A stretch of 63,816 bases of DNA, filler included, from Octopus bimaculoides (taxonomy: Eukaryota), in NCBI RefSeq assembly GCF_001194135.2. It is 9 parts of 7 records of this genome, joined end to end, with 100 filler letters (N's around TTAATTAATTAA, not from the genome) between each part and the next. Parts side by side here need not be neighbours in the genome. Positions count along the whole stretch, not along the records: positions 1 to 8,282 come from NW_026380589.1; positions 8,383 to 15,393 come from NC_068988.1; positions 15,494 to 28,925 come from NC_068999.1; positions 29,026 to 33,795 come from NC_068986.1; positions 33,896 to 37,742 come from NC_068993.1; positions 37,843 to 45,730 come from NC_068982.1; positions 45,831 to 56,713 come from NC_068988.1; positions 56,814 to 62,570 come from NC_068986.1; 1 more part is not named here. One strand, 5' to 3'. Every line of letters starts with the position of its first letter. The stretch's first letter is position 1. This document shows, one piece after another, positions 3,529-57,699 of this stretch. The notes under the pieces were generated by a model. That model was not told the DNA's origin, made no database searches, and saw nothing but the letters and a program-made list of their open reading frames with translations. A program made the position numbers and the translations under genes.

Positions 3529-3612
3529 CAGCTGAAGATAGCTCTGCATTTAAATTGATGTAATGATTACATTATTCAATTAAATGGAGTCGCTTGAAAC
3601 GGTCGTACTGCA
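3529..3612 (+). ncRNA. Type I hammerhead ribozyme motif with long stem II (probable Penelope pLTR remnant)
   Basis: CAG-CTGAAGA(3532-38)...AGC/GCT stem II...GAAA(3596-99); near-palindromic stem III ACGGTCGT; A17=3607; CTG pairs with CAG. Confidence 0.75.
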
Positions 3613-4893
3613 TCACTACTTGATATNNNNNNNNNNNNNNNNNNNNNNNNNNNNNNNNNNNNNNNNNNNNNNNNNNNNNNNNNNNNNNNNNNNNNNNNNN
3701 NNNNNNNNNNNNNNNNNNNNNNNNNNNNNNNNNNNNNNNNNNNNNNNNNNNNNNNNNNNNNNNNNNNNNNNNNNNNNNNNNNNNNNNNNNNNNNNNNNNN
3801 NNNNNNNNNNNNNNNNNNNNNNNNNNNNNNNNNNNNNNNNNNNNNNNNNNNNNNNNNNNNNNNNNNNNNNNNNNNNNNNNNNNNNNNNNNNNNNNNNNNN
3901 NNNNNNNNNNNNNNNNNNNNNNNNNNNNNNNNNNNNNNNNNNNNNNNNNNNNNNNNNNNNNNNNNNNNNNNNNNNNNNNNNNNNNNNNNNNNNNNNNNNN
4001 NNNNNNNNNNNNNNNNNNNNNNNNNNNNNNNNNNNNNNNNNNNNNNNNNNNNNNNNNNNNNNNNNNNNNNNNNNNNNNNNNNNNNNNNNNNNNNNNNNNN
4101 NNNNNNNNNNNNNNNNNNNNNNNNNNNNNNNNNNNNNNNNNNNNNNNNNNNNNNNNNNNNNNNNNNNNNNNNNNNNNNNNNNNNNNNNNNNNNNNNNNNN
4201 NNNNNNNNNNNNNNNNNNNNNNNNNNNNNNNNNNNNNNNNNNNNNNNNNNNNNNNNNNNNNNNNNNNNNNNNNNNNNNNNNNNNNNNNNNNNNNNNNNNN
4301 NNNNNNNNNNNNNNNNNNNNNNNNNNNNNNNNNNNNNNNNNNNNNNNNNNNNNNNNNNNNNNNNNNNNNNNNNNNNNNNNNNNNNNNNNNNNNNNNNNNN
4401 NNNNNNNNNNNNNNNNNNNNNNNNNNNNNNNNNNNNNNNNNNNNNNNNNNNNNNNNNNNNNNNNNNNNNNNNNNNNTAGTCCTTTCAACCTTCAGACAAA
4501 ATACACTTTTGTATATGTGCATATATACATACATACATATATACATACATACGTATACACATATACGTACATATACATATATACATACATATACACATAC
4601 TTACATACGTATGTATGTGTATAGATAGATAGATAGATAGATAGATAGATAGATAGATAGATAGATAGATAGATAGATAGATAGATATTTTTGAAGAAAA
4701 GCAACAAAAATGTATTAGGTTATGGCAGTACGTACGTTTCGTACAAGCTTCATTTATTTATGTAGTGAGAACACCACATAAGATGTGCAATGAAAATGTA
4801 CTCCTCAGCTGCATAATGGAAGTTCATTTCAGAAAGTCATTTTGAAAATGTGTGTAAATACATGAGTAGGAGATGAAGAGAATACCATCTTGA

Positions 4894-4940
4894 CTGGGCT
4901 GTTAATCAACAGTCTACTAAACTGTTGATTAACAGCCCAG
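4894..4940. repeat. Perfect 20 bp inverted repeat, 7 nt loop
   Basis: ctgggctgttaatcaacagt / actgttgattaacagcccag. Confidence 0.95.
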
Positions 4941-5440
4941 ATTTCTCAATAGTTCAGCATAGGTGTTCTCTTTTTCACTGATCTTCCGCTTTGTGCTAAC
5001 ATCCACTGGGCAGCTGATTTCCACAAGTGTACTCAGTTTCTCTTCTCTGTCCCAAATCATTATATCAGGTCTGTTGTGCTTACCTTTTATTGAGGTCTTC
5101 ACTGGGACATTCCACCAGTACCCCTTTTTATTATGAATGGTTATGACTTCTACCATACTGCGGATTCTTATTTCTCTGTCCTTGGACTTAACCTTTTGAC
5201 GAATTATATAGTGTCCTAGCTACAACATCATGTCTCATCAGTAGATAATAGTGTGATGGCATTTTCGGACAACTGCATCTGATGTAGGTGATATCCACAA
5301 ACTCTGCATTGGTTGTCTAATTTTACTGATTTTACTGCATCTCTGTCTCTTTTGGGCTTCAGGTATTTGGTTGATATTTCCTGTTCCTGGGTTGCAAACG
5401 CATACCCTTCAAAGTGAGAGGTAGTAATCCGGTTATTGGT
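4929..5440 (-). pseudogene. Fragment of an RLE-type non-LTR retrotransposon ORF (R4/Dong or HERO/NeSL-like): zinc knuckle plus restriction-like endonuclease
   Basis: Minus-strand translation with frameshifts: EGYAFATQEQEISTKYL, CRVC..DITYIRCSCPKM..RHDVVA, then HNRPDIMIWDREEK..LVEISCP..EKENTYAELL (RH-D and PD..D..E..K..Y motifs of RLE elements). Confidence 0.85.
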
Positions 5441-6159
5441 TCAAGATCGACGGCTTTGATGATAATCTCGAAGCTCTCTACCAACATGTCCATGCATGGA
5501 CTTCTGCTCATATACGCTCATCCTTTCATCTGACGAGACGTTTCGGTAGAGTCGTGCGACTTCTTTGGGCATGTATGTATGTACTACGTACGTACGTACG
5601 TACGTATGTATATTAAAAACAGAGAATGAACAAGCAAAACATGCAACCACTTTCATTTATAATTCATAATTTACACATAGTGTAAGGTAGTTATAGTAAA
5701 TCCGTAAAATCTCTGACAGCTATTTCTAGAATAGCTACGACATGTTGATTTTATATTACTGAGAACAGAACTCCATGTCGGCTAGGTATTGTTTCATCGG
5801 AGAGAGTAAAATAAGGAATATCCTTAATCCAGGATATTATTAGTCACCATTTCATTGAGGGATTAAGGAATTAAGGAGCGTCCAAAATAAAAGATGATAT
5901 TGTTTGATAAATCCATAATCAAAAGATTAAGCTGTCTCGATAGTAAAAGATAGTATCTGTTATGTATATGTATGTGTATATGTGTGTATGTTTGTATGTA
6001 TGTACGTATATATGTATGATTGTACTATGTGTGTATGTCTTATGTGTGTATGTATATTTGTATGTATGTATGTATGCATGTGTCTATGTATGTCTGTATG
6101 TATGTATAAATGTATATATGCAATTATTTGTGTATGCATCCATCTATCTATGTATGTCC

Positions 6160-6420
6160 TTATTCAGTTTTATATCTTGTCAACAGAAAAATAGCCGGTT
6201 TCTAACCTAGATTTAAGGCTCCTTCATTGGCATTTCAACATCACCAACAACAGGGTATGTACGTATGTACGTATGTAATTACTTGTGTATATATATATAT
6301 ATATAGGTATATATGTATATTGTTTGTTATCGTTCAGTTTTATTTCAAGATCGCTTGCCAATAGAGAAAGGACCTATTTCTAACCTAAATTCAAGGCTCT
6401 TTCATTAGAATTTCACAGGT
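6160..6420 (+). repeat. Short dispersed repeat, two copies here and a third at ~690-750
   Basis: Shared tcttg(t/c)caa(c/t)aga(a/g)aaa...ttctaacctagatt..aaggctc.ttcatt. Confidence 0.5.
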
Positions 6421-56320: not shown

Positions 56321-56551
56321 TCAGTTACCAATCACAACCAATCTCTATGTCTGACAACCACTCCTTCATTTCCGTCTTCCACCACCATTCCCTAAGCTTC
56401 AACTCTCTATCAAACATATCTATCGCTATTATTACTACTCCCGCCAGTGTCGAATTTCAACCACTAATTCGAACACCCTCCCGACCTCCACTGCCCTGAA
56501 ATCATCAAGCCCAAATATATGTAAACATAAACCAATTTAGAATACATTGCT

Positions 56552-56713
56552 TGGATCTATTTTAAAACGGGGGTGCCAGTTTTCATTTATGTTTTGTGTA
56601 GTGTTTTTGGTACGGAAAGACTTTCAAACTTCGTATACTTATCTATTTTGTGTTATAGAACAGAAAAATATTTGGCACTATCACGCTATTAGATGTCAGA
56701 AGTGAAAGTAGTC
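56552..56713 (+). repeat. Unclassified repeat sharing its left terminus with 62114
   Basis: Identical 22-mer tggatctattttaaaacggggg at 56552 and 62114, similar for ~20 more bases. Confidence 0.55.
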
Positions 56714-57085
56714 NNNNNNNNNNNNNNNNNNNNNNNNNNNNNNNNNNNNNNNNNNNNTTAATTAATTAANNNNNNNNNNNNNNNNNNNNNNNNNNNNNNN
56801 NNNNNNNNNNNNNGTGTGTGTGTGCGCGTGTGCGCGTGTGTGTGCGTGTGTGTGTCCATATATTTTCGGAGCGCTGTTATTAAAGTTTCATATTTAAACA
56901 TCAAATCTTTGAAAAGTGAGTTCAGAGTTTCAAATATCACGGAAGGCAGACAATAATTCATCTCATCGTTGTTTCCCATTTAAGATTATTTGGGTGGAGG
57001 GGTACACAATGCGGAAAATTTACTGCATTTTTGACTTGGAGAAAAAATACATTTTTTTCTTTTTGTTTAAATGTCCACTACCATA

Positions 57086-57205
57086 GGCGCAGGAGTGGCT
57101 GTGTGGTAAGAAGCTTGCTTCCCAACCACATAGTTCTTCGACTAACACCCTTTAAGGCGGTGCTCCAGCATGGCTGCAGTCCAATGATTGAAACAAGTAA
57201 AAGAA
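57086..57205 (+). mobile_element. SINE family A with large internal deletion
   Basis: Head ggcgcaggagtggctgtgtggtaagaagcttgcttcccaaccacat joined directly to tail ttcgactaa...ggcggtgctccagcatggc...gaaacaagtaaaaga. Confidence 0.85.
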
Positions 57206-57663
57206 TACCGAACAAAAACTATATCAGCCGAGCAAATGACCTCAAAATGCATTAAAAACTCCGTAAGATGTTCAGAGAACACGTTTAAAAAATTATCACC
57301 GTTCTCTTTGACCATGCAAAGACAAACCGGACTAAAATGAGAAAATGAAAGTAAGGTCAACTTGCCTCTTCAAAGTCTCCAGAATTACCGTATTCTAACG
57401 TGTATAAGGAACCCTTTGCATCAAAAATGATGTTAAAAAAAATATTGGAATTTCTTATAATCAACGGAAGAATCCAGTGAAATCCATAAGTATATCCATT
57501 AGTAATCCAGGTGGAATGCTGGTGTGTAGATGAGGAGAGGTGCAGAAATTCCAGACAGAAGTAAATCCGAAGTTAAAACAGGATAAAACTGGTGCACCAT
57601 GATTGACCGCTAGCTCCAAAAGTTTTTTTTTTTCTGTCTCTATCTGTTTATTTCCCCGTGTTC

Positions 57664-57699
57664 CTTTCTGTTGAAGAGCATAGGCTCGAAACGTAAAAG
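57664..57699 (+). ncRNA. Variant minimal hammerhead motif (CUGUUGA core)
   Basis: CTTT-CTGTTGA-A-GAGC atag GCTC-GAA-ACGT-A-AAAG. Confidence 0.6.

Follow-up and report, generated by a model that had tools for sequence, protein, structure and literature searches.

What are the hammerhead-like motifs that recur in a stretch of 63,816 nucleotides (nt) of the Octopus bimaculoides genome (assembly GCF_001194135.2), and where do they come from? This stretch, referred to below as the window, is animal DNA rich in AT and in microsatellites and includes 7,628 N; named relatives of two of the element remnants in it come from Octopus and Argonauta. Eight such motifs, labelled A to H, were found in it. 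They are probably type I hammerheads from the terminal repeats of several Penelope-like element (PLE) families, at least one of which likely belongs to the Hydra clade, and they appear to be single truncated or decayed copies for which cleavage is predicted in dimeric form only. Such motifs are of a known kind, as the scattering of palindromic hammerheads through animal genomes by PLEs is in print.

Hammerhead motifs in the window

The initial annotation had described seven loci sharing one order of stems and core, with a palindromic stem III, and had listed six cleavage sites. All six sites were located, each with its palindrome (3607+, 37490+, 42173-, 47909-, 52578+ and 57695+), and the seventh locus, for which no site had been given, is most likely motif E (43109+). 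The common order itself holds less widely, being departed from by F, E and H, and an eighth motif, B, had been overlooked. Measured from C3 to H17 the motifs span 3532-3607+ (A), 4808-4729- (B), 37451-37490+ (C), 42287-42173- (D), 42995-43109+ (E), 47941-47909- (F), 52521-52578+ (G) and 57668-57695+ (H). The position numbers used here (C3, A6, N7, 15.1, H17) follow the usual hammerhead numbering, and domain II denotes the stretch between CUGANGA and GAAA.

Five motifs are complete. Hammerhead A (3529..3610, plus strand) has a stem I of 3 bp, CUGAAGA, a rod-like domain II of 57 nt and stem III ACGGUCGU, with predicted cleavage after 3607; an assembly gap lies 19 nt downstream. Hammerhead B (4725..4812, minus strand) combines a 4-bp stem I, CUGAGGA and a 61-nt rod-like domain II with stem III ACGUACGU and a GUA triplet, the cleavage site being predicted after 4729. 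Hammerhead C (37447..37494, plus strand) has a 4-bp stem I, CUGAUGA, a domain II of 21 nt with 3 unpaired nt on each side, and stem III ACAGCUGU, with its putative site after 37490. Hammerhead D (42169..42291, minus strand; 4-bp stem I, CUGACGA, 96-nt domain II, stem III ACGGCUGU) would be cut after 42173 and hammerhead G (52514..52585, plus strand; 7-bp stem I, CUGACGA, 39-nt domain II, stem III ACUGCAGU) after 52578.

The remaining three are defective or variant. Hammerhead E (42991..43113, plus strand) is a decayed inverted twin of D, with a domain II of the same 96 nt, a G at 15.1 and a mismatch in stem I. Hammerhead F (47909..47941, minus strand) keeps CUGAUGA, a 14-nt domain II, stem III ACUCGGGU and GUC, and has decayed to the point of having no stem I (0 pairs beside the core). 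The hammerhead-like motif H (57664..57699, plus strand) has a 4-bp stem I, the variant core CUGUUGA, a 13-nt domain II and the short stem III ACGU in front of the site at 57695. The core CUGANGA, GAAA and UH is present in A, B, C, D, F and G and is broken in E by G15.1 and in H by U6; three helices, open at helix I, can be drawn for A, B, C, D, G and H. According to fold prediction, helix III of the window motifs forms only in a dimer or as a 2-bp hairpin.

A reverse transcriptase remnant in front of hammerhead G

A broken N-terminal reverse transcriptase (RT) remnant lies at 51868..52366 on the plus strand. It contains frameshifts and stops, carries the motifs DKT, KDHK and RLICP, and breaks off just before the motif A aspartate. 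Behind it, at 52403..52834 on the same strand, there is a highly repeated 3' tail which holds hammerhead G, 150 nt behind the remnant, and which ends in a (TA)n tract at 52835. With the remnant read as X at two stops, an exhaustive protein search returned 491 relatives at E<=0.001 (best E 2.4e-19); a word-indexed protein search found none (0 of 91 candidates), Pfam recognised neither an RT nor an endonuclease in the remnant and in 12 relatives (one chimeric match), and no relative was found in viral contigs (0 of 25 stretches).

Full-length relatives carry RWR, DKT, CxCX5C and GIY-YIG-type ends. The Hydra clade is described by Craig et al. 2021 (PMC8557442, cited here and below from parts of the paper) as having DKT in place of DKG, an N-terminal RWK, a CxCX5C linker and, at the C terminus, a GIY-YIG endonuclease without CCHH, with (TA)n as insertion target. 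The G remnant likewise shows DKT instead of DKG (QSDKTGNLY). Its N-terminal RWK region is decayed, the closest full-length relatives having RWR or RWM, and its C-terminal endonuclease part is deleted, the linker and endonuclease-type ends being found in relatives P0004, P0011 and P0024. The motifs DKT, KDHK and RL.P are common to the remnant and the published Hydra proteins and do not occur in the published Naiads. An assignment to the Naiads (DKA, N-terminal endonuclease, no canonical hammerhead) was considered and rejected, as the remnant has DKT and matches Hydra proteins. Judged from these motifs, the remnant likely belongs to the Hydra clade.

To follow the G family, 4 of the 24 runs listed were aligned on 51700-52800: DNA-type contigs of organisms A and B, one set each, and two sets of RNA reads. 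This region gathered 2,088 and 1,564 contigs and 185 and 148 RNA reads, and the family is repeated in both of these related organisms. In X1 the summed depth, which is not a copy number, ranged from 438 to 2,593 along most of the RT part, dropped to 72 at 52366-52402 and reached 30,000-63,000 over the hammerhead.

The near-zero depth of the junction 52366-52402, which no listed contig bridges, counts against a single element at G, and therefore the RT remnant and the hammerhead tail could be from two elements lying side by side, the long-stem families then belonging to another PLE clade or being non-autonomous derivatives. The far greater summed depth of the tail than of the RT part would fit such an origin, as would the fact that the Octopus bimaculoides hammerhead given by Craig et al. 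2021 (PMC8557442), Hydra-1_Obim, is from another octopus family and is unlike G. We nevertheless regard this as unlikely, because the RT and the tail are on the same strand and in the expected order, and G has a palindromic stem III of 4 bp and a (TA)n end as in the Hydra clade. Moreover, 5' truncation of retroelements gives an excess of 3' ends, so that more 3' ends than RT parts are expected. One Hydra-clade element at G is the reading that we prefer.

Loose RNA read ends were also seen at 52540; in these reads, which stem from another locus, G-family sequence starts inside the hammerhead core right after a (TA)n tract. Such reads suggest that some G-family copies are truncated within the ribozyme.

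Hydra-clade relatives in marine metagenomes

A search of metagenome contigs with an alignment of Hydra proteins provided 78 marine loci, the best of 383 confirmed stretches. A descriptor that allowed a domain II of up to 120 nt placed a hammerhead 94-498 nt behind the open reading frame (ORF) in 41 of the 59 loci where 150 nt or more were available, and on the antisense strand in 3 of the 59. Of these 41 hammerheads, 3 have a stem III of 8 nt, 17 of 9 nt and 21 of 10 nt. An 8-nt stem III without a loop thus occurs in 3/41 marine relatives and in seven of the eight window motifs. One marine locus (L054) has exactly the ACAGCUGU of motif C, and no DNA match was found between the flanks in the window and the 78 loci.

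After removal of 6 identical hammerheads the remaining 35 were used to build a covariance model, which gave 94 matches in 70 of the 78 loci. Two or more same-strand hammerheads 2362-2759 nt apart are present in 18 of the 78 loci, and four hold an opposite-strand hammerhead. Among the relatives 14 of 15 pairs change on both sides, and 80% of the cells are paired compared with 54% after shuffling, the alignment having been fitted to the structure. Domain II has 10-29 nt in all 70 distinct marine matches; the model favours a short domain II, and the descriptor, which is free of that bias, also found none above 29 nt. A6 is invariant in all 35 hammerheads of the model, and H, with U at this position, is the weakest of the eight window motifs. 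Locus L007 carries three same-strand hammerheads at positions 200, 2627 and 5054, exactly 2427 nt apart; this marine metagenome contig holds a Hydra-clade element in tandem array.

Motifs compared with chance

That the motifs are chance folds in AT-rich sequence is very improbable. A palindromic-stem-III descriptor, whose offset limit excluded C, found 5 motifs in the window, where 450 local shuffles that kept 2-, 3- or 4-mers gave 0.21-0.22 on average and never more than 3. A strict rule (C15.2-G16.2, palindromic stem III, wider offsets) found 6 against 0.013-0.02, with a maximum of 1 in 300 shuffles, and 4 against 0.01 for the subset with a long domain II. The strict rule was written after the loci had been seen, and therefore the covariance model was built from the marine hammerheads alone. 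This independent model placed F, C, G, A and B among the top 6 of 14 window matches (E-values 0.002-0.24, rough), the remaining place going to an unrelated AT-rich match (49518), and did not recover D, E or H.

The claim of the initial annotation that chance is an insufficient explanation is therefore upheld by the strict descriptor and by the model. It is not upheld by a loose rule, for which the 6 motifs observed against 3.2-3.7 in shuffles (maximum 10) are not significant. Chance is also favoured by the weakness of H (z -1.4) and by Rfam, which gave no match at the gathering score, no hammerhead among 7 matches around G, and only microsatellite-driven microRNA matches among the 150 of 288 listed for the window. 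Considering that G is in addition backed by the family and RT evidence, chance is already largely refuted for A to G.

Origin of the other motifs

Several independent hammerhead-bearing PLE families had been proposed for this genome, and this proposal is supported by the position of G behind a Hydra-clade RT, by flanks that are unlike one another except for those of D and E, and by relatives with the same architecture. D and E lie in an inverted pair of repeat arms (41948..43341; arms 41948-42468 and 42814-43341) which are 88.9% alike over 530 nt. An inverted 5'-truncated arrangement has been described for PLE insertions (Craig et al. 2021, PMC8557442, Fig. 2 legend), and in the window an inverted terminal-repeat arrangement was seen for D/E only. 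If transcribed, 41948-43341 would fold into imperfect double-stranded RNA of about 500 bp, which in a cephalopod might be a substrate for editing.

The ends of several motifs resemble that of G. For B, C, D and F the end is a microsatellite 41-242 nt downstream, for A the assembly gap: B is followed 41 nt later by a (UAUC)n tract, a TA tract lies 175 nt downstream of C, and F stands at one end of an insert of about 260 nt between two (TA)n tracts (47689-47947). E and H have no microsatellite end within 400 nt. A link to PLE coding sequence is seen for G, through its RT remnant; beside the other motifs a Hydra profile run over the whole window found no coding remnant, and Pfam found no PLE coding remnant in the flanks of A, B, F and H, although Pfam also misses 11 of 11 long Hydra-type relatives. 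These two results speak against a PLE source for every motif, and therefore the PLE origin of A to F and H rests on their architecture. Missing coding remnants are expected for short truncated copies.

For B a different source was considered, namely the 3' end of a non-LTR retrotransposon. A broken C-terminal remnant of such an element, presumably R4-like, occupies 4929-5575 on the minus strand, with a zinc-knuckle-like stretch and the restriction-like endonuclease motif RPDI...EISCP, so that strand and close spacing would suit it. The remnant stops at a fold-back junction (4930-4890), which suggests an insertion separate from B, and the core and stem II base of B match Hydra-type motifs such as L049. 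It is thus quite improbable that B belongs to this element, and a PLE origin is retained. The remnant breaks off 120 nt upstream of the hammerhead; its relatives are 64-67% identical, one being named from Octopus. The string GAAACGUC at 5537 sits in the reading frame of a non-LTR remnant and was dropped as chance.

Repeat copies at 11963 and 15058 on the minus strand (also 2695-2881 and 11371-) start at a (TA)n tract and hold only the 3' half of a hammerhead, GAAAC-palindrome-GUH, with a 10-nt palindrome at 15058. A second CUGAUGA follows 13-18 nt on, without a GAAAC of its own. Judged by eye, the half motifs at 11963 and 15058 do not make a type II hammerhead, and all these copies are likely further truncated PLE tails.

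Comparison with published hammerheads

Of the published systems, the Hydra-clade PLE hammerheads of Craig et al. 2021 (PMC8557442, File S2) are similar to those of the window in being type I and placed behind the ORF near the 3' end, in their 4-bp near-palindromic stem III with an AC start and a GU end, in a stem II base with extra or U-U nucleotides, in the (TA)n targets and in the DKT-type RT. They differ in loop II, which has at most 10 nt in the published Hydra-clade motifs compared with 39-96 nt for domain II in five window motifs. Six GAAAC-palindrome strings of the window were not found in the Craig supplement, where line breaks and cut runs may hide matches.

The minimal hammerheads of metazoan PLEs (Cervera and de la Pena 2014, PMC4209133, in the parts cited) also have much in common with the window motifs: dispersed single copies from truncated PLEs, highly variable helices, a palindromic stem III, opposite-strand pairs (100-700 bp apart) and a dimer cleavage model. 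The descriptor of that work foresees a stem II of 3-7 bp, a loop of 3-10 nt and almost no stem III, and therefore A, B, D, E and G would not fit it. Only H has the short ACGU stem III of this type. The window motifs had been called minimal, which does not apply to them, as their 4-bp palindromic stem III is that of the Hydra clade and domain II is greatly enlarged in five, a feature that the initial annotation had passed over.

A long domain II, of about 50 nt, is found in the PLE-X1 hammerheads of spike mosses (PMC8557442, File S2), where two motifs with such domains are marked as deviating from the canonical structure. PLE-X1 elements are from plants, lack an endonuclease, target 28S rDNA and do not have the 8-nt palindrome, and the domain of D and E is about twice as long. 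A published PLE hammerhead domain II of about 50 nt is known for spike-moss PLEs only. Non-LTR retrozymes (Cervera and de la Pena 2020, PMC7229834; preprint 10.64898/2026.07.22.740005, both in part) are likewise made up of type I hammerhead repeats that are non-coding and linked to the terminal repeats of PLEs. As retrozymes are short tandem repeats and none of the eight motifs lies in one within the window, the suggestion of retrozyme-like families was not borne out.

Predicted cleavage as dimers

In an intact element the terminal repeat is found on both sides of the ORF, as shown in relatives, which would give one transcript with two hammerheads about 2.4 kb apart. An 8-nt palindrome is unable to close a stable hairpin on itself, and therefore helix III, of 8 bp, would be formed jointly by two copies in one transcript. 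Following the published model, each copy could then cut after GUH and free a unit-length RNA as template for the RT of the element. Such a release could be tested with the 18 marine loci that carry two hammerheads about 2.4 kb apart, which offer ready templates. Copies in the window, having no same-strand partner, would be mostly silent. Cleavage after NUH and the requirement for a dimer are predictions for the window motifs. In Cervera and de la Pena 2014 (PMC4209133, in part) a single motif was inactive and dimers had low activity.

Folding calculations are consistent with this scheme, the 8-mer palindromes having predicted self-duplexes of -5.8 to -11.1 kcal/mol and the monomer making only 2 bp of helix III. 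Predicted self pairing exceeds the best cross-family pairing for B (-9.8 against -5.6 kcal/mol), F (-8.9 against -3.4) and G (-11.1 against -4.7), but the palindromes of A, C and D cross-pair (A-D -9.2, C-D -10.4 kcal/mol, predicted). Any pairing code would therefore be only partly specific.

Enlarged domain II

Domain II exceeds the 26-nt limit of the published descriptor in A, B, D, E and G, and also the 29 nt of the longest among the 70 marine relatives. In these five motifs it has grown in sequence into 39-96 nt, predicted to form a rod atop a normal stem II base of 3-5 bp, which might keep the geometry of the core intact. The domains of A and B fold as a single long hairpin, and none of 300 shuffles was as stable (z -4.3 and -4.6). 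In D a long imperfect rod closed by AGCC/GGCU is 1.1 kcal/mol from the minimum free energy (MFE), and in E the rod is the MFE fold. A literature search, with most subscription papers outside its reach, found no paper on long-stem PLE hammerheads in cephalopods. The enlarged domain, present in four unrelated families of one window with family-level confirmation for one, is of modest novelty, and activity is predicted only.

Does the rod belong to a working ribozyme? At the family level the question can be followed for G only. Contigs 13 and 15 of X13 cover the whole hammerhead without gaps, one X13 contig skipping 33 nt of domain II, and therefore the length of 39 nt is a family trait of G, which is seen in two organisms. 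Among the differences listed for the family (40 of 157), there is variation at the free positions N7 and H17, domain II would gain a base pair from each of two majority differences (52532 with 52562 and 52538 with 52556), and one difference keeps a stem I pair as G-U.

Other observations weigh against the preferred reading. A majority difference at 52584 breaks the sixth pair of stem I of G, the domain II of G alone is no better than shuffles (z -0.9; 18% as stable), D and E differ at 11 positions in 96 nt without clear compensation, and the hammerhead fold lies 2.6-9.9 kcal/mol above the MFE fold in each of the six motifs scored. The second and third of these points are what might be seen if the long domains were outside any working ribozyme, as hairpins inserted or grown in loop II of dead copies and passively spread, and the fact that every rod differs in sequence agrees with such an origin. 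Passive spread has an appreciable minority chance of being correct. It accounts less readily for the conserved length and added pairs of the G family and for a trait that four unrelated families of one window have in common, A, B, D and G having kept core, palindrome and stem I.

A more ambitious reading joins these results. Several abundant octopus PLE families would have hammerheads that are active with a rod of 39-96 nt replacing loop II; selection would maintain the rod as an arm that stabilises dimers or binds protein, and the 8-nt palindrome would be a pairing code specific in part to each family. Being invisible to published descriptors and to Rfam, such ribozymes would make present cephalopod counts far too low. 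We put this forward tentatively and think it somewhat doubtful as a whole. If long rods are active, genome surveys undercount PLE ribozymes, as five of the eight motifs exceed the descriptor limit and Rfam sees none. Natural long-stem dimers would then be a direct test of what PLE hammerheads do, a role still unclear according to Craig et al. 2021 (PMC8557442, in the part cited).

Cleavage of host transcripts

It had also been suggested that lone copies could act as dimer-dependent cleavage sites in host transcripts, which would have them pair in trans with other copies. The abundance of the G family, present in RNA on both read orientations, and the cross-family pairing predicted for A-D and C-D would allow this. 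No host gene was identified at the motifs and none of them has a same-strand partner of the same family in the window, D and E, being on opposite strands, would probably fold back rather than dimerise, and the low activity reported by Cervera and de la Pena (PMC4209133, in part), absent for the single motif, also argues against it. Nor did read ends gather at the predicted site of G: 18 reads in X21 and 6 in X22 cover 52578, with the same numbers at 52581, and a single pile-up of ends is listed, at 52777 and not at 52578. This is a weak test, of low depth, on about 6% of each run from one study, with strand not resolved and most reads from other copies. Host-transcript cleavage is therefore unsupported and appears improbable, and lone copies derived from PLE terminal repeats, mostly silent, are the preferred interpretation.

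Other repeats in the window

The window also contains a broken pol remnant of a long terminal repeat (LTR) retrotransposon (29030-30987, plus strand), with RNase H and integrase domains and in-frame stops. A decayed C-terminal RT remnant of the long interspersed element (LINE) type, with a FADD motif and no Pfam match, lies at 8813-9670 on the plus strand. Dispersed families of repeats of 200-310 nt resembling short interspersed elements (SINE-like), 70-95% alike, were found at 11394-11770, 13129-13405, 26572-26942, 32483-32734 and 62701-62922, and at 36373-36683 with 59468-59777.

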